This document shows, piece by piece, positions 11,966-58,292 of a stretch of DNA of 64,000 nt (the first letter of the stretch is position 1; each line of letters begins with the position of its first letter). Source of the stretch: Amphiscolops sp. MND2022 (Eukaryota). Under the pieces are notes generated by a model that worked only from the letters and a program-made list of their open reading frames with translations, was not told the origin of the DNA and searched no databases. Position numbers and translations under genes: made by a program. The stretch spans positions 54,188,001 to 54,252,000 of the forward strand of contig OZ076416.1 in assembly GCA_964187785.1 (NCBI GenBank), given 5' to 3'.

Positions 11966-12583
11966 CTAAAGGTACCTATATTCACCTAAACAGCATAGTT
12001 TTTTCATGATGTGATAATCCTCTATTAAGTCTGCGTCAGATTCTTCGTCTGAGCGTATTGTTACATCTATATCCGATTCAGCTCGAAACATAGGCTTAGC
12101 AGGATGTCTCAAGTCTTTCATTTTAGAAGCTCTTAGAGGATGATCTTCATTTTCTGAGTCTGAATTTTCGTTTAAAGATGCGTGAACTCCTATAGACTTA
12201 TCTCTGGATCCCGACGGCTGTGTATTTTGTGTTTCATTTGTTTCCGATCTTGGATTTGTGATTGTAGATTCATTTTTGTTAGTTTTGATTTCTTTTAAGA
12301 TCGCTTCAAACTTGCTATCGATTTCTTCTCTCATTTTCCCTATTCTGTCGTTGTTTCTTTTCTCCATTTCTTGTGTCCAAACTTGAATCTCATTACTGAT
12401 TAGACTGGGTTCAGTTAATTGATTTTCCAAGATGTTAGGACCTAAATTTTCTTGATCAACTAAGTTAGAATTAGTTAAAGTCGTATTACCTGGGTTTGGA
12501 GTCTCTACATTCTCCTCTCTGCTTGGAGAAGGAGTTTCCAACCTTCTAGACCTTCTACTTCTCTTGTTTCCCATTCTGCTCAA
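11966..12583 (-). pseudogene. Truncated gag N-terminus encoded by the 3' LTR, running into flanking DNA
   Basis: Matches the first 191 codons of the gag frame to ...LIEDYH (one I/N difference), then diverges exactly at the LTR boundary. Confidence 0.9.
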
Positions 12584-13495
12584 GTGAAAATGTATTTCGG
12601 TTGCTGGGGAAGAATTTCAATTATCTTTCGGTATCTCAAATCCAAAGAAGGATCAATATAGTCAAGAGAAAAGTTTCGCAAAAGACAGAAAGGTTTACAG
12701 CAACTGTTTTGCACAAGGTAGAATTGATGAATGACTGATTCCCAACACTAGAAACTCCAGAAAATTAAAAGCATGACACCCCTTTTTATCGCAATCATCA
12801 TCAGAAAAATATAAAAATAGAATTTCATCATCATGACATCAGGTTATATATATCTCAGTTACATGACTTTCAGAAGAATAAACAGGACCCTAGAAAGCCT
12901 GGAAACAGCACAAAATGACGTATGAAGTTGTGTTAGTGGTTGGAATTCTCAATACATTGAAATGATATAATGAATGAACAATTAAAGCGAAAAACGTACA
13001 GTAACGAGTATACGCTACTTCTCGAACCGCGTAATGCCGCATAGTAAAAAGTGCATAGTGACGAGTATACATTATGCTTTAATCCGTAGGATGCCGCATA
13101 ATCCAATTACGAAAGACGCATACTTGCGAGTAGTCAACATATCTCAAAACGCATAATGACGTATAGTCATTAGCACATATGATCATCTGATGACGTCATA
13201 TCTTAAAAGCAATATCAAATGGAAGCCAATTAGTCATTCAATGTGATTTTTGGGTATAAATCTCTAAGTTTTGGCTACGTATGACTCTCCTATCGCTCGC
13301 AAACAACTTCATTTATGAAAAGCATCATTAAAAATATTTGCATGACTATGGCAAATTAACATAAAGTTTTGCAAGGTGTTTGTTCAAGTTCTTCAAAGTC
13401 TATTTACGATGATTTCTGGGTGTTGATATTGTCGCTGCTCGCATTCATCTCTCATTGCTGCACCACGGGTCCAGTACAGCTGTATGGCTGGAACA
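12010..13495 (-). repeat. 3' LTR (1486 bp)
   Basis: Direct repeat of 26411-27898; by eye 3 substitutions and one 2-bp indel. Confidence 0.97.
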
Positions 13496-14510
13496 GTCCC
13501 GCTCTTTTGAAGATGAATAGGGCAGCTTCAAAACCATCTATGAACGCTCTAGAGCGGACTCCACGGTCTCTAACGGTTTCACCGTCGTAAGCTGTAGCTG
13601 CGAGATATTCTCCAAGGGTCTCCAACGCTATCTGGTCGTAAGTTTTGTTGCAATACTCGCATATTCCGGCCACATTAGGCATGACTGTTGGGAACAGCCT
13701 ACAGTTGTCTCTTTCATTGATTGGCATGTATAGCACGTTAGTACTGTGTGCTACAGCAAAGGGAAATCCGACTTGTACCATTGGATGTATTGGGACTGGT
13801 ACCCTAGATAGTATGTCCGGAACTCCACGTGGAGGAAGTTGAACCACTGAGGGGGTTGTGTTTGACACAGGTGCCCTCTGGATCTCATTGTAATTGGGTA
13901 GGATTAGCACACTCGCTTGACCCTCATCTTGGCCTGCATTCTGTGTGATGTTTTGCCCATTGTTTACACTCCTGTCCCAATGGTGAAAATCTGAGGAATC
14001 GGGATGATGGTTTGGTGGGTAGGTTGGGATTATTTGACTCGCGGCGTCAGACTGGTGTTCAGCATTTCTTGGGGTAGGTAAGATTGCTGCAGCCGGACGA
14101 CCATAGCTATTCAACCTGATATTAATATCAGGGTTTGGATTGCTTGAGGGTTCATTTTCCAGTTCCAGATCGCTATCAATAAATGAAGGGAGCGATAACG
14201 GAGTTGACGGCAGATCTTCTTCAACTAAGTCCATTAGTTCCCTTTCAATTCTCGTTCCTCGGACGTCTATTGTATCCTGAGTAGACATTTCGTTTTCTCC
14301 CGTGGGGAACAATAATGCTGTGGTAGCCCCCATAAATGCAGTCATGGAGTCTTCTTCTGTCGTATTCACCCTGAACCTGTCCAGCAATTGAGGAACATTT
14401 CCAGGTTCGACGATGAATTCGCTATCTGAATTGCTTGAAATATCGATAACGTCGGGTGACAGAGGCGAGTACAGGGTATCTTCTTCTATGGCAAATTGCA
14501 AGTTATTCAT
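13452..14510 (-). CDS. Accessory ORF3 (352 aa), sense to gag-pol: acidic/P/S/N/Q-rich N-terminus, C-terminal CxxC-containing segment; function unknown
   Basis: Uninterrupted ATG-initiated ORF; CRLFPTVMPNVAGICEYCNKTY motif; last 14 codons plus the stop lie in the 3' LTR; no signal peptide or TM segment seen. Confidence 0.8.
   Translation of the reverse strand: MNNLQFAIEEDTLYSPLSPDVIDISSNSDSEFIVEPGNVPQLLDRFRVNTTEEDSMTAFMGATTALLFPTGENEMSTQDTIDVRGTRIERELMDLVEEDLPSTPLSLPSFIDSDLELENEPSSNPNPDINIRLNSYGRPAAAILPTPRNAEHQSDAASQIIPTYPPNHHPDSSDFHHWDRSVNNGQNITQNAGQDEGQASVLILPNYNEIQRAPVSNTTPSVVQLPPRGVPDILSRVPVPIHPMVQVGFPFAVAHSTNVLYMPINERDNCRLFPTVMPNVAGICEYCNKTYDQIALETLGEYLAATAYDGETVRDRGVRSRAFIDGFEAALFIFKRAGLFQPYSCTGPVVQQ
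13496..13508 (-). promoter_or_regulatory. Polypurine tract
   Basis: AAAAGAGCGGGAC immediately upstream of the 3' LTR TGTTCC on the minus strand. Confidence 0.8.
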
Positions 14511-15329
14511 CTTGTGGATTCTCGAGAAGTTTCAATTTGGAATATTATTTGCAAGTTTGAAAATCTGTGTTTTCAGACGACTGATTTGTGAGTTTGTGGA
14601 GACCAAATGGTGTCGGTTATTTCGCTTTCTTCTTTCCAAGGCAAGGAAAACCCGCGAAAAAATTGCTTGTCATGGTCTGATCTCCCAAATCCCCTTATAA
14701 GGGTTTCTTTCAGGCTTCTGATCATGAGACACGTGGATGATATTTCGTAAACAAATTCCTTTTTAGGTGTTCCAGTTTTCTACATCACCTTATTTCCTCT
14801 CATCAGCGTCTTCCACACCGTTTCATCGGAGTTTTAAATGATACGTAAACAAATTTAACCTAACATCAAAGTAGAAAGAACGAAAATGTGATTTACAAGA
14901 TGTGCCTAGTTTCTGAAACTAAAATATATTTATCTGGAATTGCATGACTGGAAGCAAAGAAGATACAAATCATTAAAAAAGGGGTTCATATTAGTCAAAT
15001 CATGTTCTAAAAAAGCTTTAGCTGTAAGAAGCGTTTTGTTTTGTTTTAGTCCCGCACTTGAAAAGTGCGTATGGTTCTGTTTTTCCATATGATTTCAATG
15101 GAACAAGTGAAATTTAGGATAAAATTACATAAAAGAGTTTCTGACTGAGATATCACATTGATGTCCCAATGGCACCTTAAATCTCGTTCGAAAAAAGCAA
15201 TGAATGCATACATTCTATGCATATTAATAACATCAGAAGTTCATTTGTGATAATTAACACGTAGTTTCTTTAGTTTGTTACGTAATAATGATTCATTCAC
15301 ACAATATTAACATTGGTTCATCTCTGTGG

Positions 15330-15500
15330 ACACATACAGCGAGAACCGCAGGGTGGCGAGTATACGTCATTGCTCAATCCGTATAATGCCGCATAGTATT
15401 CAGCTGGCAATTCCGCGTACTGCCGCATACTCATCACTGCAATTCCGCATACTGCCGTATGCTCGTCTCCAGTCGATCCGCATACTGCCGCATGCTCTCG
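15330..15500. repeat. Degenerate CCGCATA-motif tandem repeats in the internal spacer
   Basis: Repeated ccgcatactgccg / ccgcatagt; similar to LTR sequence near 13000-13170. Confidence 0.65.
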
Positions 15501-15902
15501 CTTACTAAATCGTTCCAATCAGCATAGAAACGATGAGAATGAATACACATTGCTTTCAGATGTCATAATGAGTCAATCAATCACGCTGGCAGACGTAATT
15601 GACGTATGGACAGCCAATCAAATTGCAGTATTCTCCACGCATATTTGCGCTCAATCATTTCATTTGCTCTTTTGCCTTCTTTTGTTACATTAACGCCACG
15701 CCTTTATTGCATTTTATCAATTGAATTGTTTCATTTGTCAGAATAGTCTTACTAGTCAAAATTGGTTTTGTTGCAGATCAAACTCCTCATCTTTCCTCTT
15801 TAGCTCTTAGTTTTCTTCGTCGCTTTCAGTGCAGACCCACGCCCTTATCTTCATTCTGATTCCCTTTAACAAGATCTTTCTTCATTTGCAAATTTATATG
15901 AG

Positions 15903-18900
15903 ATGGACCCAACTCAGAAGACAGAATTATCTGGGAAACGGAGGACGCGAAAAGACCAAGTTCCCCATTTTCGAGGCGGAGCTAGAGATTACAATCCTTC
16001 CTTCCGATACAACACAGGTTGGTTCGATTTGTTTCTCAGAATTTAACTCGATAAGTTTCATTCAGAGTGAATTTTTGATCCCTGTCAAGCTGGCCAGGCT
16101 TGCAGCTGAAAGTGATCTAGATATTCCGACCAGATTCAGAATTTTTTCGAAACGTTTCCGTTTCTAATTTCTAAGTGACTTCCGCTTTCTCTATTCATTT
16201 CCTGTCCCCGCGTCCGGATTCAGTCAATTTTTAACTTCCGTCACTTGACATAGTTTTTATTTTTTCTTGTTTATCAACAAGGTAGCGTGTTTTAGATGAA
16301 CCAGAAGCTCCAGAAACTTCTCCAGCTAAATCGCCTGCCAAATTTTATACTTCGTTGGTGTCCACTTCTCCAGCCACACCACGAGTCCGTCCCGGGACAA
16401 AAACACCCAGTACCCCAGGTCTTCAAATCGACGAGGGGATAAGAGTAGAGGTTGATCGCAGCTCAATTATTCCTGAGGCCTCTCCTCCAAAATCAACAAG
16501 TTCCCGATCTCGTTCAGGAAAGGATTCTTCAAACTCAAGGCCCACAAGTCCACAACCACCCACGACTCCTACCCGCAACATGGATAGTTCGGTCCATATG
16601 TTAGACCACGAGGTATACAGGGGGTTTGAGATGCCAGGTACTTCACGAGTTGAGCCGACCCACTTTGATCAGTTTCTTGGGCAGGCTGCAGATGAGATTC
16701 CCAATCAAATCATTTCCTCGACTGTTGAACACTGTAATTCGCAAGACATCGACCTAGTAGAGGTCCCCCATGAAGCTGTTGCAGCAGGTAGTTACCCCGA
16801 CACGTCTCAACCCAGCCTTAGCATTACGAGGCAAGAGATTCTCACTTTGACGAGTGTCTTGGAGCGTATCCCCCAAACTTACCTGGTAGGGGAAGAGGTT
16901 GATCCCAACCGGTCTTTGTCTCTCATGATTGTAGACGAAAACGCCTTACCCCCATTGATAGCTTCTTCAAGCCAAGATGACACTCCTGCGCAGGCTACCT
17001 CCGAAGTAGCACAAGTTGTTGTCAATACCGGGAATCCCATAGCAAGTGGGAAAAGACGTAGGCCCAAGTATTCCCTTACAGGGTCAATGTTCAGGAAACA
17101 CCCTGTATTGAAATTTTCAGCCACTGGCCCCTTGGACCGGGACGACACCTTACAAGTGGTGGTGTAGGGTGTGTAAGACTGAACTCTCTTTGATTAGTCG
17201 GGGAAGCCTCGATTAATGTCCCATTATCGTTCAGAGTCGCACCTAGTCAAAGAACATCGCATCCGTATGGAGGTGCCTGGAATGTCTTTATTTGACAAGG
17301 ACGAAAAAGAACTGCTTGGACTTTCTTTGCAAGAGGCCAAAAAGAAAGCTAAGGATACGTATCCCATTGCACCACAATTGGATCCTTGCCGCCCATTAGT
17401 CGGACAAGACTCAGTGCCTGACCAGCGCAGCCAGTAGTCCCACTGCCAAAATTCTTTCTCAAATTACCGTTCTTGAATTTGGACTTCGCCATGGAGGGCA
17501 CATAAACAGTCTCACTGGCATTTACGATGAACTTGTGAGGTTCAATTCTATGAGTCACTTGAGTACCCAGAATTGGAGCCAGGAGCGTCTTTTCGTTAGT
17601 ATTTGTCATTGTTGCGTATTTCTTTTTCTTTCGACTTTGGGGCATACTTAATTGATGTTCTTGTTTTAGGGGATAGTGGTACACCTGTTCCGTGAACTGA
17701 TGGCCTACTGTGTGACAATGGTTAATTCTTCGGGATTTTACTCATTAGCATTACAACACACTCCTACAGCCTCTTTCATAATCTTGAATTTCTGGTCGGG
17801 CAATGTGTTCCACAGAGTCTGCCTTGGTAGCACTCCACGAGGGATGTTACTCCCCCATAGGATCCTAAATTTCATTTCATCCTTCTTGTGTCTTTTTGAA
17901 ACCTTCCCGACATGTGTCGCTGTTATCAATGTTGGAGACAAATTGGGCGACTGCTTATCTACCTGTCTCCCTGGAAAACAACAGCCTGCTAACATTCGAA
18001 CCTTCAACCCAGAGGAGTTTGAGCGAAGCCTTTCAGTCCCCACCGCCCAAATCATAGAGCGACATGATTTCCGGACTATCCTAGATTTCTTGTTAATGAA
18101 ATTGCGCACTGCTCTTGACATGGATTGGCTGAAAAAACTACCCCTTCTTCACAAGGTAGACCTCATATTGTTTCTTTCAAGTAATCGTATAGAGTAGTTA
18201 TCCCATTCCATTTCCTTTAGAGTGTAATTCGCTTGGAGTATTCTCTCGAGGAAGCATCTTCCATCATCGAAATCTTGTCAAACAGTTGGGACCATGTCAA
18301 GGACCATTTGAACAGAGTCGCCCGGCTTCCGGTCTACCGATTCCATATGCGAGAGGTTATACCACATCCCAAAATTCTTTCTATTGAATCAGGCTCCGGG
18401 TATTCCGGTTCTCCCTTTTCATCATGATCTTTTCGTTTCAGCCAAACACTTTGGATGAGTGTTTTCGACTCGACACTGCCTACTTGGCACGACTCTTCGT
18501 TATAAGATATGTCATCGATCACTGTTAGTTGTTTTCTTTGTTGCTATCAACATAACATTTTGACAGGTTTCGGTATTCTACCTCCTTTTCCATACAGTAC
18601 CTCTTGTACTTATCCCCCTGATCTGTATAGTACTTCTCACACACATGTGTTGCTTGAACACTCATGTAAATGTCCGATTATGCTAATTCCGCACAATGAC
18701 GTATGATCAGTACGTCTTGTTTCGTATAGTGACGCATAGTTATCCCCACTACTAGTGGTGGTAAAATATATACTTAATCATGCTAATTCCGCATAGTGAC
18801 GTATAGTCACCACAGCTTGTTCCGCATAGTGACGCATAGTCGCCACAGCTTGTTCCGCATAGTGACGCATAGTCGCCACAGATTGTTCCGCTCGATCACG

Positions 18901-20165
18901 TATAAGTTCAAATCTTTCGAGGTGAGAACTTATATCACTAATGCATTTCTGCACGTGACGCGTATTGTAACTTTTACCAAAAGTTAACATTCACTTGTTC
19001 TGATTTATTCTTTTATACTAATGGTAACAAACATCATTTTGTTTGGTATGTTTTAGACAATTCTGCATTCTCTGAAGTCCAGTCAAATGTCGAGGGCGGC
19101 TTCCGATTATTCAATCAATTTTCGGTATTCATTTATAGCCAGCTCCAGAGTATCTTGCCTGATGCTACACTAGGCAGCGTTTCTGATTGGGATGGGTTCC
19201 TACAGTTGGATTTGAACCAGCCAGAACTCCCTTTCAAATCAGCAGATGAGTATGTCCTAAATGAGGATTTTCACCGACTTGTTGTCGCAAGCAAACTGCC
19301 GCGCCCAAGCAAATTTGTAGACCAGTCCATCGCGTTCGGGAAGGCCTTGTGTAAACAATTGATGGAACATGAGATCGTCAATTCTGGTCTCGTTAAGGGT
19401 TTGTCTGCCTTCGATCCTGCGGTAATTCTTGATGGACCCGAAAGCCACTACATCACTGCCATAGAGAAATTGTCTAGTCATTTCGTTTCTATGAAGCTGA
19501 TTACTTCGAGTGACAAAGCGAAGGTGACAAGTCAATACCGTTCCTTTGCCATTAAACTGCGGTCCGAAGCAATCCCGGCTTATAGTGATTGGATTCACTT
19601 CCTTTCAGCTCATCACGAGATCCAATGTCGACCTGAGTTGTTTCGTCTATATAAGCTCTCCTGTCTATGTTTGCCCCCTCTTGTAGACATACCTCCGGAA
19701 TTCACTGTCCCAATGCCCAAGTTAGCTGTTGATGCGGAGATGTTTGATTCATGCCTTAGAAGTCTCCAAATGTCGTATTCAACAGTTCCTCACGTGTCCA
19801 GTTTATACAAGGGTCCGAAGTCCGTGTGCAGAGTCTTCCGCCTGTTGGGTCGTGGATCCGATCTACTAGTGGACAAAAAGTTTTCCGTCTGGAACTTCTT
19901 AAAAGGAAGTGGTCCTCGTCGGACTGCAATGTTGGGAAAAATGGAGGCTGAATACCGAAAGGCAGTTCTACATTACGACAGGCCAGTGGTCACTTCAAAC
20001 ACTACTACTCCCAGTGTTAGCCGGGCAAGTAGCACACACAGCACTCCATCTCCTGATTTGTCTTTGGGCAGAGTTAATGTGTCGCTTAGTCGCTGTGCTA
20101 ATGTATCCCCAGAGGGTACTGTGAAGAAAAACAATACCAAAATTGTGAAGGGCAAGAAAAACTAG
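15903..20165 (+). CDS. Antisense spliced gene (~1070 aa): S/P-rich N-terminus, BED-like zinc finger, inactive hAT-transposase-like domain. Exons 15903-16017 (tentative), 16296-17594, 17670-18155, 18221-18355, 18442-18523, 19057-20165. Three frameshifts in exon 2.
   Basis: Five GT-AG introns whose phases all join the ORF fragments in frame; YKWWCRVCKTELSL...MSHYRSESH finger; SSGFYSLAL...RVCLG and PELFRLYKLSCLCLP resemble hAT/DUF4371-type transposase segments (recalled similarity, not searched). Confidence 0.75.
18787..18890. repeat. 33-bp tandem repeat (~3 copies) in intron 5 of the antisense gene
   Basis: ttccgcatagtgacgcatagtcgccacagcttg starting at 18787, 18820 and 18853. Confidence 0.9.
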
Positions 20166-20388
20166 TCCTTTGTTGTTGTTTGTATCTTCTTAAACTGTCT
20201 TTATTACTTCTTTGTTTGTATAATCCTTTGATGTTTGGTTGTATTTATTCTAGCATTATTTATTCTGTTAGCAGAAAAAGAGAAGTCCAAAAACTATGCG
20301 TTATAACGCATGACTAAGAAGGAAGATAAAAAGATTTCTCTGCAAGTGTTTTCTAGTATGTGATTGAGATGAAGTTTAGAAGTTGTTT

Positions 20389-23300
20389 TTAATATCTGTA
20401 TGTGTCAGAGTAGTTTGGGTTGGGATTAGGGCGTAAGTTGTACTTTTCACCACGGGTATTTATGGGTTCTTCTTGCGATGGGGTATTTTGGGAATTTTCT
20501 GGGGTTTTCTGAATATCATTGTCTGTTGAAGTATTTGTATCTTTTTGGGTTTTTTGGGTATTATTATCATTTTCTTCATTTACTTGTTGTGGAGTTTCGT
20601 CATCATGATTTTCATGGTTTTGATCTTGTTCAGTGGTCTGTTCCACTGGGCTCCCCCCACTATTTTTTGAAATTTCGAGGGAGGGAGGGTGGTTATTTTC
20701 GGGTGATGTAATGGGCAGGTATTCAATATCTTCGATATTTTGTGAGTACTCTGGAGGGTTGTCCTCAAACGGGTTGGGGCCGAAATTTGTATTCCAAGAT
20801 TGAGCATATAGATCATCTTGCGTTATCGGCAGTTGGTCATCTTTCTGCCAATCAGTTTCTCGTACGAAAATGTCTGCGAGGGGAGCTTGGGGGGTAAACT
20901 TCCTCAAGCGAATTCGATGCAGAAGTTGCGTCTTGTTAGTTCCTAAGCGTCTAACTATGTAGTTATTGTTAGGGAGGACTTTTTCAACTTTATATGGACC
21001 TTGCCATCTAAATTCTCGAAAAGGTATCTTTGTTGCCTGGGTATCCGCCTTCGGGTTTAGGACGTAACAATAATCCGTTGTTTCAAGTGGTGATGCCTTT
21101 GCTTTCCTATCATAATATGCTTTGTATTTGAGATAGGATTGCATTATGTTCTTTTTGGTTTGGTCAAGCAGTATTTTCATTCTTCTTTGTACTTCCTCTG
21201 CTACATCTGTATGTGGTAGGTATTTTGGGTTAGGGTTGTATCCAAGCTTGTAATCGAGTATGTTATGGGGTATTCGCCCATGAAATACTCGTGAAGGCTC
21301 ACAACCCAGTGTTGCATGGTAAGTAGTGTTGTGGTTTAAGACTGCTAGCGGGAGAAACCTATGCCAATTGTTTCGAAATTCCCCCGTGGCAGCTTTAAGA
21401 TGCGTTTTCACTGATGCATGAGTTCTCTCTAGGATTCCAATGGTTTGAGCGTGTTTCATCGTTGCATGCTTGAGCTCAATTCCTAGAACTGCGGCTACTT
21501 CATGTGTGACTTGGGCATTAAATTGGGTGCCCAAATCCGTAATGATTGTGGTTGGTAGATATGTGTGTTTGCAGAGGATATCCATTATTACTCGGGCTAC
21601 AGCAGAAGCTGTAATGCGTGTTACTGGGTATGCAAACAAATACCTTGAAAAAACGTCTATCGCTGTGATTATGTGGTCATAGCCTCCACTTGGAGGGAGA
21701 TTGGGTAGGATGTCCATTTGAAGAATGTCTTCTGGACCAAGGTCCCATTCTGGACAGTTGAGAAGTTCAGTTCTGAGAAGATCATTGTTGATCCGTTTGG
21801 TTTGTATGCAAGTTTGGCAATTGGTGACCCATTTTTTGATGTATTTAGCGATACATGAGTAATAGTACTTTTGTCGGGCTTCTTGAATCATCTTCGTAAT
21901 ACCTGGATGGTTTGAGTTGTGACCATGTAGGGCTTGAAGAAATTCTTCTAGAAGTTGAGCCGGAAGTAGTATCTGGTAATGTGAGGTGGTCCCCGTGTCG
22001 GTATAGTACCTGCGGGTGAGAACTTCTTGTTTGATTTCAATTCTAGCAATATTTTGAAGATAATGGTGGTATCTATAGTCAGATGCCAACTCGTGTTCAT
22101 CAAAAGGATGTCCTTCTATTTTTGCTCGTAAATTTCTGAGTACAATATCGTTGTTTTGTTCTAAACGAATCTTCGCATTGTCTCGGAAGTGACCTTCCGA
22201 ACAAGTGTTTAAACCAGAAGTAGGTTTATGGAATTGTTGGAGTTCGGTTATGTTATTTTCTGGTTCATTGTGTGTCTCGTTTTGAGCTTGGTCTCGGATG
22301 TTCTGCTTCTCTTGCCATAATTGGTTTTCATCTAGTTCATCATCGGGGAGGATGTAAATCTGCTCTTCTTCTACGATCCCTGATGATTGTATGTTGACTT
22401 CAATTGCTTTAGTGTTGATGTCATTTCGAATTGTCAGTTCAAGTTTTTCAACTGGATTGACTTCGGCGCGTGAGAGGAAGTCAGCTGCAGTGTTCATTGA
22501 TCCCGCAACGTGGGCGATTACAAAATTATATTGTAAAACATAATCGCATGCATTCCAAAGTGCCGGTGGGATAAGTTTTGCTTGAAAAAATCGGGTTACT
22601 GATCTGTTATCGGTGAACACAATTACAGGGAATGTGCTTCCCCACATGAGGTGTCCAAATTCACCAAAGGCAAAATATATGGAAAGGAATTCCTTGGCAT
22701 ATATAGACATTTTTGTTTGTGTCGGGTTAAAAGTTTTGGAACCAAATGCTATGGGAGCGTATGTTTTGCGTTTTGATTGCAGTTTTTGGTTCGGGTCGTC
22801 TTCTATCATAATGGCATATCCCGCAGCAGTAAAGCTGGCATCGGACATGATTATGAGCTGTTTGTCTTTGAGGGGTTGTTTCAATGCCAATTGGCATGAA
22901 TTTTCGAGGAGTTTATTGAGGTTGATGAAATCCTCTACTAAGTTTGTTGGCACATAGAATTTGGATGTTTCCTTGAGAAGTTTAAAGAACGGAGACAGCC
23001 GTTCTGAGAGTCGTGGAATGTAGTTGCGATAGTAGTTTAGGAAACCTATATATCGCTGGAGGGCTTTTTTGGATTTAGGAAATCTGAGTTTAGACAGAAA
23101 GTTTTTGACTTTTTCTGCTTGCGGGGCGACTCCTTCAGGTGTGATTGTGCGTCCCAAGAAGTCAACTTGTTTGACGCCAAAGTGGCATTTGGACATCGTA
23201 AGTTTGAGGCCAGCATTTCTGATGCATTCGAACACTGTTCTGATGTTGGCGCATAGTTGCTGGGCATTATTTGCAGCGATGCCAATGTCATCCACGTATT

Positions 23301-25296
23301 GGGCGCACTGGTCTGCTTTGATTGCTTTATCTAGGTACTCTCTCATGAAACTAGAAAATGCTGAGAGAGATCTGCTTAGGCCTTGCGCTAGTCGCCTATA
23401 AGCGAAGGTTCGGCTGGCAAAGTTAAAAGCGAGCATTTGTATGGATTGGTAGTCCGCCATTTGTAGGCAGTGGTAAGCCTGTGAGCAGTCCAATTTGCAG
23501 AAAAGCTTTTTCCCTGCCATATGTTGCGCTGCGTCGGACAATGTGCTTACCGGGTGGTTGTTATTTGTATAGTCTTCGGTTATCAAATTGTTGATTTTCC
23601 TGAGGTCAACAAGAAGTCTAAGGCGTCCATTTGGTTTGCGTTGAGCAAAAATTGGACTAGCATATTTGGAGAAGGGTAATGTTGTTATGATGCCGTATTT
23701 GTGTAGAAGGGCAAGTTCTACTGTAATGTCGTCTTTAAGGTCGATTGGAGTTGGCAGACTTTGGCTGTACGCTGGTCTGTCATCATTGGGTGTGAGTTTT
23801 ACCTTGAATTCCCGATTTGTGCCAATGTCGAAGCGATGACGAGCAAAAATGTCATGGAAGTCAATGAGAATTTCTTCAATATGCTGACGTTCTGCTTGGC
23901 TGAGTGTCGTATCGGACCAGTCAAAATTGGAAAGGAATGTTTTACGCGATTCTTCATTGTCTTGGGGGTTCAACTTTTCAAGTCGTTGCAACTCGAGTAG
24001 TTCGTCATATATTCGCTGTTGAATTGGGGTGTAGGTTGTAGGATCGCCTGGCTCCTCTGGAGTTGGGAACCAGTAGGTTTCTTGTTCTTGATTCTGTGGA
24101 GGAACTTTCAAGAGTTCATGTAAGTAGATTTCCGATGTATCGTCATGTTGCATCATGAACGATAGTATGGTTGGGTCTACTGGTTGTATGTATTTGATTT
24201 GTTCTGGCGTCAGTATTTTGAAGTCCGCCAGGTGAGTGTCAAGGGGAATTGTGTATGGTAGTTCAGAAAAATTAATGATTTGGTACCCGATAGCATTATT
24301 GTTAACCGTGCTGAGTGACGATGTGATGAAGATGCTATCGTGTTGTTCAAATTGTTGGGATGGGGTTACAACTCCTGTTGCATCATGGTCCATGAGGTGA
24401 GGCATTCTGCTGGCTATGGCGAGGGTTTCGCCAGGTTGTAGAGTATAAGTGTTTTCTGCTAACAGTGGAGTTGCCTGACGCATAGTTATTTGCGTATCAG
24501 GTTTAAGTTGCATTGAAAGATATGGAAATGTCAGGATGCCTTGAGTGACATCGAAGATGGCATTGTTCCGACGTAGGAAACAAAGGCCAATTAATGGGTT
24601 CGGTAAATTTTTCATGATGATGAAATTTTCTCTTAGCATAAAGTCAGCCACTTCGAATTCTAGTAAGACAGTGCCAATTGGGACTTCTAATTGTCCGTTG
24701 GCCACCATGATTTGAAAATTTGGCGGTGGGCCAGTTTCTCGGATTGCATCATTTGCTAACAATTTAATTTTGTTGAGATCCTGTTCGGAAATTGCACTCG
24801 TTAGGGCTCCTGTGTCTATGAGTCCGTCGAGAGTTAATTTTTCGAAGTCCATAGGCATGTAGTACATGTGGCGTTTACGCTTTAGTGTAAGAGAGGTTGA
24901 TATTGGAAAGTATGATAGGTTTCGTTCCTTATCGAACTGTATATGTTCGGTGAGGTCATCATCAAGAAGAGGTTGCTTTTGTTCGTTGCAAGAAGAAATC
25001 GGTGGTTGTGGTTGTATCGTGGTGGTTTTATGTTGGGTTTGTGATGTTGGGTCGATTTGGGGTTGGTTTTGTGGTGTGGGTTGTTCGAAGTAGTTATCTG
25101 GTGCATCTCTCAAGAGTTCATAGTATTGATCTGGAGAGGTGTTCGGAGTTTCAGATGGTTCAGGAGTTGGAGGAGTAGAGTCAGGTTCAGTAGTTAGTCG
25201 TTTGAGTTGAATGTCTATGGTTTCCACTTGATGCTGCCAGTCATCTTGTGGTTTTATTGCGGCGTTGTTGTTAAGGCGTGGCGTTTCTAGTTTAAA
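20389..25296 (-). CDS. pol: Gypsy Pol polyprotein (protease, RT, RNase H, integrase), expressed by -1 frameshift
   Basis: LIDTGA; YVDDI; SDASF and FTDN; HHCC (HGHNSNH...CQTC) plus D-D-E (QMDIL, ITDLG, ILERTH); GPY motif; frame open from the slippery site to the stop at 20389. Confidence 0.97.
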   Translation of the reverse strand, partial: FKLETPRLNNNAAIKPQDDWQHQVETIDIQLKRLTTEPDSTPPTPEPSETPNTSPDQYYELLRDAPDNYFEQPTPQNQPQIDPTSQTQHKTTTIQPQPPISSCNEQKQPLLDDDLTEHIQFDKERNLSYFPISTSLTLKRKRHMYYMPMDFEKLTLDGLIDTGALTSAISEQDLNKIKLLANDAIRETGPPPNFQIMVANGQLEVPIGTVLLEFEVADFMLRENFIIMKNLPNPLIGLCFLRRNNAIFDVTQGILTFPYLSMQLKPDTQITMRQATPLLAENTYTLQPGETLAIASRMPHLMDHDATGVVTPSQQFEQHDSIFITSSLSTVNNNAIGYQIINFSELPYTIPLDTHLADFKILTPEQIKYIQPVDPTILSFMMQHDDTSEIYLHELLKVPPQNQEQETYWFPTPEEPGDPTTYTPIQQRIYDELLELQRLEKLNPQDNEESRKTFLSNFDWSDTTLSQAERQHIEEILIDFHDIFARHRFDIGTNREFKVKLTPNDDRPAYSQSLPTPIDLKDDITVELALLHKYGIITTLPFSKYASPIFAQRKPNGRLRLLVDLRKINNLITEDYTNNNHPVSTLSDAAQHMAGKKLFCKLDCSQAYHCLQMADYQSIQMLAFNFASRTFAYRRLAQGLSRSLSAFSSFMREYLDKAIKADQCAQYVDDIGIAANNAQQLCANIRTVFECIRNAGLKLTMSKCHFGVKQVDFLGRTITPEGVAPQAEKVKNFLSKLRFPKSKKALQRYIGFLNYYRNYIPRLSERLSPFFKLLKETSKFYVPTNLVEDFINLNKLLENSCQLALKQPLKDKQLIIMSDASFTAAGYAIMIEDDPNQKLQSKRKTYAPIAFGSKTFNPTQTKMSIYAKEFLSIYFAFGEFGHLMWGSTFPVIVFTDNRSVTRFFQAKLIPPALWNACDYVLQYNFVIAHVAGSMNTAADFLSRAEVNPVEKLELTIRNDINTKAIEVNIQSSGIVEEEQIYILPDDELDENQLWQEKQNIRDQAQNETHNEPENNITELQQFHKPTSGLNTCSEGHFRDNAKIRLEQNNDIVLRNLRAKIEGHPFDEHELASDYRYHHYLQNIARIEIKQEVLTRRYYTDTGTTSHYQILLPAQLLEEFLQALHGHNSNHPGITKMIQEARQKYYYSCIAKYIKKWVTNCQTCIQTKRINNDLLRTELLNCPEWDLGPEDILQMDILPNLPPSGGYDHIITAIDVFSRYLFAYPVTRITASAVARVIMDILCKHTYLPTTIITDLGTQFNAQVTHEVAAVLGIELKHATMKHAQTIGILERTHASVKTHLKAATGEFRNNWHRFLPLAVLNHNTTYHATLGCEPSRVFHGRIPHNILDYKLGYNPNPKYLPHTDVAEEVQRRMKILLDQTKKNIMQSYLKYKAYYDRKAKASPLETTDYCYVLNPKADTQATKIPFREFRWQGPYKVEKVLPNNNYIVRRLGTNKTQLLHRIRLRKFTPQAPLADIFVRETDWQKDDQLPITQDDLYAQSWNTNFGPNPFEDNPPEYSQNIEDIEYLPITSPENNHPPSLEISKNSGGSPVEQTTEQDQNHENHDDETPQQVNEENDNNTQKTQKDTNTSTDNDIQKTPENSQNTPSQEEPINTRGEKYNLRPNPNPNYSDTYRY

Positions 25297-26984
25297 TCCT
25301 TCGATGAGGATTGTTGGAGTCGTTCCATTTTGGGTTTGATGTGCTTTTTGGCTTGTTTGTAGTTCTCAATAATCTTCTTCTGGGCTTCTGTGAGGTTCCA
25401 TTTAGGTGGGCGATTTTCCATGTTTTCGCCAAAATAGCAATTTTCTTCAGTGTGTCCTGGTGTGTTACAATTTTCACATTTGTCCGCTTCCTGATCTTCC
25501 TGAAGTTTGCGTCGCTTGGCTAGTTTTGGGCAATCGTTCATCATATGGCCCTCTTCTTTGCAATAACGACATTGGGTGTCTTTAAGGGTCTTGTTTGGGA
25601 CTGATTTTGGCGTTTGTGTTTTGAGTTTATCAGGTTGTTTTTTGTTGGTTTTTTCTGTCTTTTGTTCTTTTTTGGTTGCGGTCATCTGTGTTTTGACCAT
25701 GGATTCATCGGATTCCAATCCGTTTAGTTCCATCTCTCGTTCGAGATGTTTGACGATTTGGTTATAGGTGCCATTTTCAAGGTATGCTTGATTAATGGAC
25801 TTTTTGAGGTGGGGGGGGGGCATCTTAGCATAAAGTAAATTCTCTATCATTTGATGCGCATTAACCCCAAACGCTTTTTTGGCACTTTCTTCGAGTTCTT
25901 CGAGGAAATCTGGGAGTTTTTGGTTTTCGGGGTCAAAGATGAGTCTATTGAATCTGTGTTTGGCAGATGCGCTGGACTCCGGTTTTACGTATTTTCGTCG
26001 GAAAACTTTGAGAATGTCTTCTAATGTTGTTGTGGGCGTTCTTTGTATGTTTTTGAACGTTTTCAGTGCCAGGCCTCTCAGGTGGGCGTCGAAATGATTG
26101 ATTTTCATGTCTTCTGTAAGATTCGGTTGCATTCTGAGTGTTGTGTGGAACAAGTCCTCAAAATACTCAAATTTTTCATTTTTCTCGTTTTTTCCATTAA
26201 ATGTGAGTGTGTTTTTTGGGTGGAAGAATGTTTGTGATTCGTTTTTGTTTGCTAATTTTTCTATTGCCAGGGCAATTTGATTGACTGGGTCAAGGGGTGT
26301 TGCAGATGAAGTTGTTGTGTTCTGGGCTGCGTGGGATCCTGTTGTGTCGTTTAAAGACTGTGGGTTTTGCGAACTCTGTCTATTGAGTTGTCGGTTAGCT
26401 CCTGTCACCATGTGATAATCCTCTATTAAGTCTGCGTCAGATTCTTCGTCTGAGCGTATTGTTACATCTATATCCGATTCAGCTCGAAACATAGGCTTAG
26501 CAGGATGTCTCAAGTCTTTCATTTTAGAAGCTCTTAGAGGATGATCTTCATTTTCTGAGTCTGAATTTTCGTTTAAAGATGCGTGAACTCCTATAGACTT
26601 ATCTCTGGATCCCGACGGCTGAGTATTTTGTGTTTCATTTGTTTCCGATCTTGGATTTGTGATTGTAGATTCATTTTTGTTAGTTTTGATTTCTTTTAAG
26701 ATCGCTTCAAACTTGCTATCGATTTCTTCTCTCATTTTCCCTATTCTGTCGTTGTTTCTTTTCTCCATTTCTTGTGTCCAAACTTGAATCTCATTACTGA
26801 TTAGACTGGGTTCAGTTAATTGATTTTCCAAGTTGTTAGGACCTAAATTTTCTTGATCAACTAAGTTAGAATTAGTTAAAGTCGTATTACCTGGGTTTGG
26901 AGTCTCTACATTCTCCTCTCTGCTTGGAGAAGGAGTTTCCAACCTTCTAGACCTTCTACTTCTCTTGTTTCCCATTCTGCTCAA
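25287..26984 (-). CDS. gag: Gag (565-codon open frame; first ATG at 26975)
   Basis: Capsid-like region (FEDLFHTTLRM...LRGLALKTF); two CCHC knuckles CRYCKEEGHMMNDC and CENCNTPGHTEENC. Confidence 0.93.
   Translation of the reverse strand: MSRMGNKRSRRSRRLETPSPSREENVETPNPGNTTLTNSNLVDQENLGPNNLENQLTEPSLISNEIQVWTQEMEKRNNDRIGKMREEIDSKFEAILKEIKTNKNESTITNPRSETNETQNTQPSGSRDKSIGVHASLNENSDSENEDHPLRASKMKDLRHPAKPMFRAESDIDVTIRSDEESDADLIEDYHMVTGANRQLNRQSSQNPQSLNDTTGSHAAQNTTTSSATPLDPVNQIALAIEKLANKNESQTFFHPKNTLTFNGKNEKNEKFEYFEDLFHTTLRMQPNLTEDMKINHFDAHLRGLALKTFKNIQRTPTTTLEDILKVFRRKYVKPESSASAKHRFNRLIFDPENQKLPDFLEELEESAKKAFGVNAHQMIENLLYAKMPPPHLKKSINQAYLENGTYNQIVKHLEREMELNGLESDESMVKTQMTATKKEQKTEKTNKKQPDKLKTQTPKSVPNKTLKDTQCRYCKEEGHMMNDCPKLAKRRKLQEDQEADKCENCNTPGHTEENCYFGENMENRPPKWNLTEAQKKIIENYKQAKKHIKPKMERLQQSSSKDLN
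25290..25296 (-). promoter_or_regulatory. -1 programmed ribosomal frameshift heptamer U_UUA_AAC
   Basis: GAT TTA AAC TAG ends gag; the -1 frame TTT AAA CTA GAA is open into pol. Confidence 0.85.
26393..26410 (-). promoter_or_regulatory. Primer-binding site (tRNA-Leu-like)
   Basis: TGGTGACAGGAGCT directly follows the LTR-terminal CA; resembles the tRNA-Leu PBS TGGTGTCAGGAG. Confidence 0.75.
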
Positions 26985-27898
26985 GTGAAAATGTATTTCG
27001 GTTGCTGGGGAAGAATTTCAATTATCTTTCGGTATCTCAAATCCAAAGAAGGATCAATATAGTCAAGAGAAAAGTTTCGCAAAAGACAGAAAGGTTTACA
27101 GCAACTGTTTTGCACAAGGTAGAATTGATGAATGACTGATTCCCAACACTAGAAACTCCAGAAAATTAAAAGCATGACACCCCTTTTTATCGCAATCATC
27201 ATCAGAAAAATATAAAAATAGAATTTCATCATCATGACATCAGGTTATATATATCTCAGTTACATGACTTTCAGAAGAATAAACAGGACCCTAGAAGGCC
27301 TGGAAACAGCACAAAATGACGTATGAAGTTGTGTTAGTGGTTGGAATTCTCAATACATTGAAATGATATAATGAATGAACAATTAAAGCGAAAAACGTAC
27401 AGTAACGAGTATACGCTACTTCTCGAACCGCGTAATGCCGCATAGTAAAAAGTGCATAGTGACGAGTATACATTATGCTTTAATCCGTAGGATGCCGCAT
27501 AATCCAATTACGAAAGACGCATACTTGCGAGTAGTCAACATATCTCAAAACGCATAATGACGTATAGTCATTAGCACATATGATCATCTGATGACGTCAT
27601 ATCTTAAAAGCAATATCAAATGGAAGCCAATTAGTCATTCAATGTGATTTTTGGGTATAAATCTCTAAGTTTTGGCTACGTATGACTCTCCTATCGCTCG
27701 CAAACAACTTCATTTATGAAAAGCATCATTAAAAATATTTGCATGACTATGGCAAATTAACAAATAAAGTTTTGCAAGGTGTTTGTTCAAGTTCTTCAAA
27801 GTCTATTTACGATGATTTCTGGGTGTTGATATTGTCGCTGCTCGCATTCATCTCTCATTGCTGCACCACGGGTCCAGTACAGCTGTATGGCTGGAACA
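26411..27898 (-). repeat. 5' LTR (1488 bp)
   Basis: Begins TGTTCCAGCC, ends TTATCACA; near-identical to 12010-13495. Confidence 0.97.
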
Positions 27899-27966
27899 CA
27901 TGATTTACCTAAATCATCAAATTTTTGGAACATTACCTGAATTTACCTAAATTTACCTAAAGTAGC

Positions 27967-28541
27967 ATGTCTTTTTTCTCAGAAATAGCTCCAGTTCTCA
28001 GAAATGTGGCAACAGCTGCTCAGCGCTATTGCCTCGTGCGTTTAGTTTCTGTTTGTTTTTCACAAAATGTTCAAACTATTTACGAAAATGATTCAAAACT
28101 TCTCGCTGAAGTAAGGTTTTTGAAAAGTAACCTTGTGAGCTTTAAGGGTTCCATTGAAAATTTGGAAAGCCAGACTTTGCCCTTGATTGATACTACAACA
28201 ATTGTCTGCGAAACACTCGCCGGATTCCTAATTTGGATAGAAGGATATTGCAGAAAACTGAATCGATTATCGAAAAAAATGCTGGATTCTCAATTGTAGC
28301 TGCAATTGCAAAGTGCATCACCGGCTTCAATGATTTACTACCGCCAGAAATATTGGATCTGGAATTCTTTCCTTCTGAGATGGCGTCCTTCAAGAATGAC
28401 CATATAACTTCTGTTGATGTTGAAAGAAGTTTTTCGACAATGAATCACCTGTTTTCAAAGCAGCGTGAATGCTTCGCTTTCGAAAATTTTAAATATTGTT
28501 TGATTTTCTACTTCAACGCCGATGTATTTGATGGAAAATAA
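27967..28541 (+). pseudogene. hAT transposase C-terminal remnant (frameshifted)
   Basis: ITSVDVERSFSTMNHLFSKQRECFAFENFK dimerisation-type motif, lying inside the hAT TIRs. Confidence 0.75.
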
Positions 28542-29279
28542 ATATTTTCCAATTATAATACTTGTTTTACCCAATTTTACCTAAATCAGGGATGTCGCCT
28601 ACCTAAATCACCCAGTTATTTTACCTAAAAAACCAAGCCCTGTTGATAAGGTATTCGTAAGCTCCTCAATTCCCCCCATTGTGTCTGAAATAATATCTTG
28701 ATATACACTGCTGTTCAATGATCAAACATTATCGCATGAATCTTCAGCAATTCAATATGGAAGTTTAATATTCGTGAGATGCAACTAGCGCTCAACCGAA
28801 ACGTGACTTCAGTTCTGGTAAATAAATATTGAATATTTGTTCATGGGAATGGTCGTTTGTTTGTCAGAGAAACAAAACGGTTGAGACAAATCTCAAGATA
28901 TGGAAGATTAAATACCATAGCGCCTTCAAGTTGACAAGATAATCGATCATTTAAATCACAACTCGTTCCGTTTCAGCTCAGCAGTGACGAGGAGGAGGAA
29001 TATGAAACGACACAATCAGGCAGGCATTTCATCAATTCAGACAACTTAGAATTATGCTTAACCATAAGCTTCAAGTCCACCAATACTACTAGGTCTTGGA
29101 AAATGCCAATTAAAAGTTGCTCATATTTGACGGCAGAGAGAATTTGCGTTAAAATTCCTAGACGATTTTAACTCAAATTATCAGGGTATATTTTTGACGG
29201 ACGTGTCAAAACAACTGTACAGACAAGTATTTGTAACCATATCAAATTCTTTCACTTGGCACAAATTATGCTCGCAAAT

Positions 29280-29860
29280 TATGTGAAATTTTGGGGAAAA
29301 ATCGATAATGTTATACGAGAAATGAAAACGTTATATCCGAACTTTCAAAATGATACATCCGAACTTTTAAAACGTGATATCCGAACTTTGAAAACGTTAC
29401 ATCCAAACTTTGAAAACTTTACATCCGAACTTTGAAACGTCATATCCGTATTTTGTAACGTTACAGCTGAACTTTGAAACGTTAATCCGAACTTTGAAAC
29501 GTTATATCAACTTTGAAAACGTTACATCTGAACTCTGAAAACGTTACATCCGAACTTTGAAACATTATATCCGAATTTTGAAACGCTATATCCGAACTCT
29601 GAAAACGTTTCATCCGAACTTTGAAACGTTATATTCGAACTTTGAAAACGTTACATCCGAACTTTGAAAACGTTACATCCGAACTTTGAAACGTTGTATT
29701 CGAACTTTGAAAACGTTACATCCGAACTCTGAAAACGTTACATCCGAACTTTGAAAACGTTACATCCGAACTCTGAAAACGTTACCTCCGAACTCTGAAA
29801 ACGTTATATTTGAACTTTGAAAACGTTACATCCAAACGAAAATCTGGGTTATCCTCTCTT
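29280..29860 (+). repeat. 21-22-bp minisatellite (gaaaacgttacatccgaacttt) with conserved flanks
   Basis: More than 20 units; array and flanks match 57915-58250 in inverted orientation. Confidence 0.9.
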
Positions 29861-30385
29861 TTTTTAAAGATTCTATTTTTCTCCGAGTAGATATATTCTA
29901 CAATTTCATCAATGATTATAGTTAATTGAATTGTCATGCTAATCAATCAAAAGCGACAACAGTAAGATGGGTTACTGATGAGATTGTCACAAAGTATTAA
30001 TGAAGTTATCTTCGGGTGTCAGCAATCTAGTCAACTTTAATTAACTACGAAATGAAGTGACATCTGTCTTTATAAAAGTAGGTGACTTCAAGTTTAAATA
30101 AATATTTGAAAGTTCTTGAGGACATGCATCATGGCATCACATTAGTTTTTAAGTACTCATTAACATGATAATGAAAAAAATGGAACCGTGAATGAAATGA
30201 AATGCCTGCACGACATCAACAGAAAGTGCCTTAACTACTGCATACATGAGCGACGATGACTACCCAGAGGTTTGTAGCACTTGAGTTGTAATCACCAGAA
30301 AAGGTGCAAAAATGTTCATAAAAAATTAGAAAGTTTTGGCCTTTTTGTACACTTGGGGGCATTTTCTGACACTTTCTTTAGAATA

Positions 30386-57811: not shown

Positions 57812-58292
57812 TTTTTAGTCGAAAGGAAAAAAAAGCCCGACTATTACAGTGGATAGTTTTTTTCCAGTTCACTTTGAATGGTCCACTTTTTTGTTCTTTG
57901 TTCAACTTTTTAGCTGAGAGGTCAACCCGGATTTTAGTTCGGATATAACGTTTCAATGTTGGGATGTAACGTTTTCAAAAGTTAAAGTTCGGAGGTAACG
58001 TTTTCAAAATTCGGATCCAACGTTTTCAAAGTTCGGATCTAACGTTTTCAAAGTTCGGATCTAACGTTTTCAAAGTTCGGATATAACGTTTTCAAAGTTC
58101 GGATATAACGTTTTCAAAGTTCGGATGTAACGTTTTCAAAGTTCTGATATAACATTTTCAAAGTTCGGATGTAACGTTTCCAAAGTTCGGATGTAACGTT
58201 TTCATTTCTCGTATAACATTGATTTTCACCCAAAATTTCACATTATGTTGAGCCTTAGAAATGGCGCCGACTTTGGCCGTTCCTGGCTTGTT
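57812..58292. mobile_element. HINE-like element carrying the 22-bp minisatellite
   Basis: Same terminal motifs as 5094-5661 (tttttagtcg...cgactattacagtg; ggcgccgactttggccgttcctggcttgtt) bracketing aaagttcggatgtaacgttttc repeats. Confidence 0.7.

Follow-up and report, generated by a model that had tools for sequence, protein, structure and literature searches.

The 64,000-nt stretch of DNA analysed here (the window) contains a retrotransposon whose gag frame is already open inside its 5' long terminal repeat (LTR). The question raised by this locus is whether these codons are a translated part of Gag or an accidentally open stretch of LTR, and what is then to be expected of the copies of the same codons that lie in 3' and solo LTRs.

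The element and its gag frame

The retrotransposon spans positions 12010-27898 of the window on the minus strand (15,889 nt; Table 1) in a 1.07-Gb eukaryotic genome. Judged from its sequence it is a young LTR retrotransposon of the Ty3/Gypsy type, with only 3 substitutions and one 2-nt indel between the two LTRs; the Ty1/copia superfamily was ruled out, as the integrase does not come before the reverse transcriptase (RT). Its Gag gave a Pfam match above the cut-off to zf-CCHC and weak ones, below the cut-off, to Ty3_capsid and Retrotrans_gag, and the Atlas matches (0.92-0.94) were to clusters of Ty3-type capsid/CCHC-knuckle Gag. The best PDB matches of the RT were 7kse/7ksf (1e-31), followed by Ty3 (4ol8, 7q5b; 1e-27). 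For the RT-RNase H (22400-24000, minus strand) there are relatives at 45-57% identity and then a gap down to 23-29%, which marks the lineage as isolated, and in a quick tree of 30 rows, built without named Gypsy references, the four focal RTs cluster together on a long branch (SH-aLRT 100). The family has a great many members, with 2253 and 11146 first-look candidates (40 and 150 of them scored) and, at the protein level, 2500 proteins among 8000 scored candidates.

Table 1. Positions in the window of the parts of the element.
Feature	Position	Strand	Remarks
5' LTR	26411..27898	-	1488 nt, TG...CA ends, 99.66% identity to 3' LTR
3' LTR	12010..13495	-	1486 nt; gag codons 1-188 repeated, with ATG at 12574
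Target-site duplication TCATG	27899..27903 and 12005-12009	-	both element ends
TATA-like box	27243..27253	-	ca. 280 nt upstream of gag ATG; candidate promoter
AUG-depleted leader, putative 5' UTR	26976..27170	-	conserved CAGTT at 27107
LTR-coded Gag N-terminal domain	26411..26975	-	codons 1-188
Junction ATG (Met189)	26409..26411	-	made by LTR-end CA + PBS TGG
PBS TGGTGACAGGAG	26399..26410	-	12 nt; translated as (M)VTGA
gag	25287..26975	-	562 aa: LTR-coded domain, linker, capsid, zinc knuckle
TTTAAAC	25290..25296	-	immediately before gag stop, pol in -1 frame; candidate frameshift site
pol frame	20389..25365	-	protease, RT, RNase H, integrase in that order (Ty3/Gypsy order)
Antisense frames, three	16286-17167, 17670-18197, 18942-20165	+	conserved, between pol and 3' LTR
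ORF3	13452..14510	-	sense, conserved; 352 aa from first ATG

The open gag frame is bounded by stops at 27020-27018 and 25289-25287. The preliminary description of this DNA had given 574 nt of open frame inside the LTR; the frame is indeed open there, but this figure was counted from a TTG at 26984, and from the first ATG, at 26975, the LTR-coded stretch measures 565 nt, or 188 codons and the first letter, A, of codon 189. The frame was also said to be read through the LTR end and the primer-binding site (PBS), which we could verify (GAT TAT CAC A/TG GTG ACA GGA, the slash marking the LTR end), and so was the presence of a second ATG across this junction, in frame with gag. Over the same 565 nt each of the other five frames contains 8-21 stops. 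As to the 3' LTR, which was expected to carry an identical truncated N-terminus, the copy is there, but it is near-identical only, with 1 synonymous and 1 non-synonymous difference.

The PBS has 12 nt of complementarity to the 3' end, plus CCA, of the genome's own tRNA-Leu-type genes, their identity being read from the anticodons and the long variable arm. Genes of this type with matching 3' ends lie in tandem clusters at G000:C11:5998951-6078858 and G000:C8:35591805-35766578, and the latter set has an apparent intron. The TTTAAAC heptamer at the end of gag we take to be a candidate -1 ribosomal frameshift site into pol.

Two more coding regions are found on the 3' side of pol. ORF3 is 38-50% identical to its counterparts in three other subfamilies, has a CxxC at the C-terminus and gave no Pfam family; its reading as env, and thus of the element as an errantivirus, was ruled out, with no ORF3 copy passing the hydropathy cut and no transmembrane segment. 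Of the 6 elements with an LTR pair, 5 have the ORF3 stop within the LTR, 44-47 nt from where the LTR starts (44 nt in the window), so that the LTR is coding at its other end too. The candidate polypurine tract before the 3' LTR, AAAAGAGCGGGAC, is short, interrupted and located within ORF3. The three antisense frames are 34-68% identical to those of other subfamilies and are probably exons of one spliced accessory gene. The first of them has a C2H2-like finger in other copies and is shorter in the window copy; for the third, Atlas gave a weak signal resembling a hAT transposase (0.89-0.90, recognition low). Repeats with the related motifs GAGTATACG / CCGCATAGTGACG are present in the LTR (27376-27447) as well as internally (15327-15398, 15433-15496, and 18677-18873), where they sit beside the accessory frames in two places; they are candidate internal promoters or binding sites. 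Outside the element, short frames at 27961-28541 (plus strand), flanking the 5' LTR, give the impression of a decayed DNA transposon, a possible insertion target, and minisatellites with 22-nt and 35-nt units are present at 29268-29866, 57940-58247, and 2203-2670.

Selection, clade-wide layout and the start of translation

Selection was analysed in 41 5' ends: the window, 20 copies found by DNA similarity and 20 capsid matches with long frames. Among the 20 DNA-similarity copies, 5 have a disrupted LTR part and 8 a disrupted post-PBS gag. A simple counting method, applied to the 26 of the 41 copies with intact frames (the remaining 15, with frames broken or unmatched, were left out) and to the 296 of their 325 pairs with dS >0.2, gave a dN/dS of 0.169 for codons 1-183 (codon bootstrap 0.12-0.22), with non-independent pairs and synonymous sites near saturation. 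By the same count the value is 0.09 for codons 1-25, 0.087 for the Gag C-terminus and 0.022 for the capsid, the LTR-coded part being 8 times higher than the latter. Column conservation at the three codon positions, among 27 representatives, is 0.83/0.84/0.66 in the LTR-coded part vs. 0.66/0.65/0.66 just upstream, and 25/26 representatives differ in net length from the window by a multiple of 3, compared to 10/25 upstream. By these measures the LTR-coded gag frame is under purifying selection across subfamilies; this selection, together with the stops in the other five frames, argues that the open frame in the LTR is not due to chance.

The preliminary description had suggested looking for conservation of the open frame in related LTRs, and the layout does hold across the clade. 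We inspected 30 further loci, the best matches of an N-terminal query and hence biased toward intact copies: all 30 have an MG start and a distance of 550-571 nt (1 mod 3) from this ATG to the LTR end, and 26 of them are free of stops over that distance. LTR pairs of 1484-1880 nt were present in six of the seven elements that were read end to end, and the seventh had no LTR pair in the stretch examined. In a subfamily at a dS of ca. 1.4 from the window, four partial matches some 14 kb downstream stop at query positions 827-834, the LTR end being at 827. The most distant subfamily, 37% identical to the window in the N-terminal domain and 90% in the RT-RNase H, shows 13 partial matches that end at the junction, alongside 14 close full-length matches. 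On the strength of these comparisons, the coding LTR is a property of the whole clade.

The start codon of this frame is well placed for initiation. Of the 76 scorable copies (82 in all), 72 combine a purine at -3 with G at +4 around Met1 (26975). The 195 nt upstream of gag, a border that was chosen after seeing the data (both sub-windows give a ratio of 0.1), contain 7 ATG vs. 65.7 expected from dinucleotide shuffles (26/27 representatives), which makes ATG the most depleted trinucleotide of the leader among those with more than 10 expected. The depletion is strand-specific, as reverse-strand CAT occurs 91 times vs. 102.5 expected, and 11 different LTR types have 1 ATG in the leader vs. 27.1 expected. 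This is the pattern of a leader that is scanned, implying an RNA start upstream of 26975, and we infer translation from 26975 and a transcription start upstream of it in the 5' LTR. The gag part of the LTR would then correspond to "U5".

A candidate promoter lies farther upstream, where TATAAA occupies the position of the TATA-like box in 16/27 representatives and TATATA does so in the window; CAGTT is found ca. 135 nt upstream of the gag ATG in most subfamilies. An Inr consensus is given in PMC3601003. The motifs TGTCAT and ATGATG are kept at fixed spacing around the TATA-like box (27265-27175, minus strand) across otherwise diverged LTRs; ATGATG, at ca. -228, is the start of a short upstream frame in most subfamilies, and the LTRs of sister families start with TGTCATG. 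No conserved AATAAA poly(A) hexamer appeared in a scan of the 27 representatives. A splice acceptor before Met1 was also considered and rejected, as the distant subfamily has no AG there.

It could be argued that the frame is open by accident, owing to base composition or to a DNA-level constraint on the LTR, and that the true gag start is located at or after the PBS. An N-terminal domain without known homologue, most of which has low confidence in a structure model, would be compatible with such an accident; the codon periodicity, the in-frame length changes, the dN/dS of 0.17 and the AUG-depleted leader speak against it, and we consider it extremely improbable. These same features, and the Kozak context of Met1, support the N-terminally extended Gag that had been put forward as one of two possibilities, and on this evidence the 188 LTR-coded codons are genuine Gag, amounting to about the first third of the protein.

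Junction ATG, LTR copies and recombination

The other possibility put forward was that of two Gag isoforms, the second starting at the junction ATG. In such a scheme the clade would make, besides the long Gag, a short one of 374 aa (linker, capsid, and zinc knuckle) starting at Met189 by way of an internal start site, splicing or re-initiation; it would be similar in size to the Gag of the sister families, with a possible role as structural capsid or as an inhibitor. There is a precedent for an inhibitory short Gag in Ty1 p22. The junction Met is present in 118 of the 120 listed proteins, its ATG has G at +4, and the Gags of the sister families start at the capsid, with frames of 325-432 codons. 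However, an ATG arises at this place in any element in which an LTR ending in CA directly joins a PBS starting with TGG, and it is therefore probably a by-product. In 10/10 sister-family elements the frame of this ATG is closed within 6-28 codons. In the focal clade, C is found at -3 in 76/76 copies, 7-21 other AUGs lie between Met1 and the junction, and no polypyrimidine tract precedes it. The claim of two isoforms through this ATG thus finds no support, and a short second Gag in general seems unlikely to us.

These sister families (L077-L096, from the same genome) are informative in another way. They resemble the focal clade in the primer site (CA followed by TGGTGACAG) and in an RT-RNase H that is 55-57% identical in the six tested, the capsid being weakly related. 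They differ in having LTRs of 189-431 nt (10 elements) and a gag that starts 79-272 nt past the LTR end, directly at the capsid, without the N-terminal domain. Short LTRs and a post-PBS gag in sisters with the same PBS suggest that the coding-LTR layout is probably derived, a polarity based on these ten elements and on general knowledge of Gypsy layouts.

Every LTR duplicates the gag codons, and it had been suggested that 3' and solo LTRs could express them as peptides or fuse them to flanking sequence. In the window, the frame of the 3' LTR runs for 188 aa, takes 14 aa from the flank and closes after 202 aa. In one subfamily search, 16 of the 30 loci were LTRs with no PBS after them, mostly 3' LTRs, of which 14 were open to the LTR end and 2 frameshifted; the open copies run into unrelated tails of 1-33 codons. 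The suggestion holds as far as the open frame is concerned, but neither the tails nor the substitutions within LTR pairs give a sign of function. Between the paired LTRs of 19 elements we counted 15 synonymous and 41 non-synonymous differences, 2 stops and 1 frameshift; the proportion, 43/58, is close to the 0.75 expected under neutrality (p 0.88), in a comparison of low power with young copies. Accordingly, no host selection on integrated LTR copies was detected in these 19 pairs, at this low power, and the selection described above would act during replication of the element, on the codons as Gag.

Still, one may imagine that 3' and solo LTRs release a free N-terminal domain (ca. 190-220 aa), which would act in trans, for instance as a dominant inhibitor restricting copy number, or be fused to host exons. 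Every LTR has a candidate promoter, a leader, a strong start codon and 188 codons, open to the end in those 14 of 16 copies, and the family is very large. Yet the LTR end provides no stop, the tails are unrelated, and the changes between paired LTRs, in a sample with few true solo LTRs, are at the neutral expectation, so that we regard a released domain as quite unlikely.

Recombination among lineages is also evident at the LTR end. Trees of the LTR-coded and of the post-PBS gag are in conflict, with AU tests (on groups named after seeing the trees) giving p 2.8e-6 and 0.0011. In the first case L022-L024 group with L028-L029 by their LTR and with the window's group after the PBS, and in the second L025 and L027 are near-identical after the PBS and not in the LTR part. 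The informative sites of L023 switch between +545 and +578, the LTR ending at +565. Among the 82 5' ends, two pairs of clusters have the upstream LTR and the internal region in common and differ in the whole coding LTR part, while in another pair only the last 150 nt of the coding LTR differ; all three pairs regain identity at ca. +550. Breakpoints at the LTR end mean that the N-terminal domain has been swapped in frame between lineages. Other breakpoints lie inside the LTR and inside gag, and the left edges, at ca. -250, -50 to 0 and +400 from the ATG, do not locate R, since template switches are possible anywhere in the LTR. The switches at the LTR end form a pattern expected from the reverse transcription of two co-packaged RNAs.

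Overall, we are fairly sure that the clade makes one N-terminally extended Gag. Transcription would start in the 5' LTR upstream of 26975, and ribosomes would scan the AUG-poor leader and initiate at Met1, translating 188 codons of LTR and then the integrase attachment end and the PBS before they reach the capsid. Translation of this RNA would later have to cease, so that tRNA-Leu could bind in the middle of gag and serve as primer for a minus-strand strong-stop DNA no shorter than 565 nt. As the downstream part of the 5' LTR would be templated only by this strong-stop DNA, an odd number of template switches between co-packaged RNAs would yield a hybrid Gag whose two parts always meet in frame, at the invariant His188-Met189 junction. 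The N-terminal domain would behave as an exchangeable module composed of a basic start that may be myristoylated, a long helical segment and a flexible linker, and the 3' LTR and solo copies would be passengers of LTR duplication. A more ambitious version would have the LTR as a cassette for a new myristoylated, matrix-like domain that is reshuffled in frame and also freed by 3' and solo LTRs as a competitor of Gag. We give this combination little chance of being right, but if it were true the released domain would hold copy number in check the more strongly the more LTRs there are.

The N-terminal domain and known systems

The LTR-coded domain has a basic, Arg-rich start (MGNKRSRRSRR), with 6 Lys/Arg in 13 residues, and an acidic, S/N-rich region at residues 107-188. 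It had been described as disordered, and for the most part this stands, with one exception: AlphaFold2 on residues 1-245 (26 sequences) predicts a confident 51-residue helix at 56-106 (26810-26658), the rest of the LTR part being disordered (mean pLDDT 58.7). A heptad scan of the helix brought out no clear register (best 0.36). The prediction of a two-copy complex of residues 48-112 scored 0.02 against a mark of 0.32, too low to count either way. Neither Pfam nor PDB sequence searches gave anything significant for the LTR-coded part, and a comparison of the N-terminal model with viral structures by fold gave 0 matches at E <= 0.001. Conservation at the start is high: in the 98 of 120 listed proteins with a homologous start, Gly2 is found in 96 and Asn3 in 97, and position 6 is Asn in 55, Ser in 40 and Thr in 1. 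The window copy has the pattern MGxxxS/T, given as a myristoylation motif in bioRxiv 10.1101/2025.03.14.642691, and so do 41 of the 98 proteins, i.e., a minority.

What this domain might do can be approached by analogy. An N-terminal Gag module with a basic patch is reminiscent of the retroviral matrix (MA), as a functional analogy; the model contains one long helix within residues 1-188 and lacks the compact helical MA fold. Retroviral MA is encoded downstream of the PBS. According to PMC9787330, it targets membranes through a basic patch and myristoylation, and the N-terminal coil of Arc serves in oligomerisation and membrane binding. The window domain has no sequence or fold match to either that we could find. 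A matrix-like targeting and assembly module is nevertheless the most likely single reading, and we hold it tentatively, at slightly less than even chances; next comes a role of the Arg-rich start in nuclear targeting or in binding RNA.

Protein-coding sequence within an LTR is familiar from HIV nef and MMTV sag, but these genes are located in U3 rather than at the PBS end and do not encode Gag. HIV nef ends in U3, and ORF3 of the window likewise ends inside the LTR start. Some long-LTR Drosophila elements, such as Ulysses, start ORF1 inside the LTR. We found no example in the literature of an element of the Gypsy type whose LTR includes a long Gag domain, in a search that was thin on older and subscription papers. 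Troyka was excluded, as PMC12440569 gives it CG...CG ends and a 3-bp target-site duplication, vs. TG...CA and TCATG here.

There are practical consequences. Annotation pipelines that split a non-coding LTR from the internal part will cut this Gag by a third, and solo LTRs of the clade will be annotated as orphan host genes. The arrangement also raises the question of how translation across the PBS is squared with tRNA priming, and in-frame hybrid Gags are predicted at each recombination. A very successful Gypsy-type clade and its short-LTR sisters without the domain are a natural before-and-after pair, which lets one ask how Gag acquires an N-terminal targeting domain.

The closest known system is Ty1 of Saccharomyces cerevisiae (Ty1/copia), in which the 5' LTR likewise contains the gag start and the PBS is part of the coding sequence. 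PMC5454406 gives Ty1 a 53-nt 5' UTR and a PBS at RNA nt 95-104, inside GAG, from which we calculate ca. 14 codons before the PBS, in agreement with the preliminary statement that the Ty1 overlap is short. Here it is 188 codons and a whole domain, in an element of another superfamily, with integrase last, a tRNA-Leu primer and LTRs of 1.5-1.9 kb. As far as genome sequences can tell, the layout is an extreme form of the Ty1-type arrangement, real, selected and clade-wide: an LTR can hold, at its PBS end, an entire protein domain under selection, ca. 13 times the Ty1 overlap.
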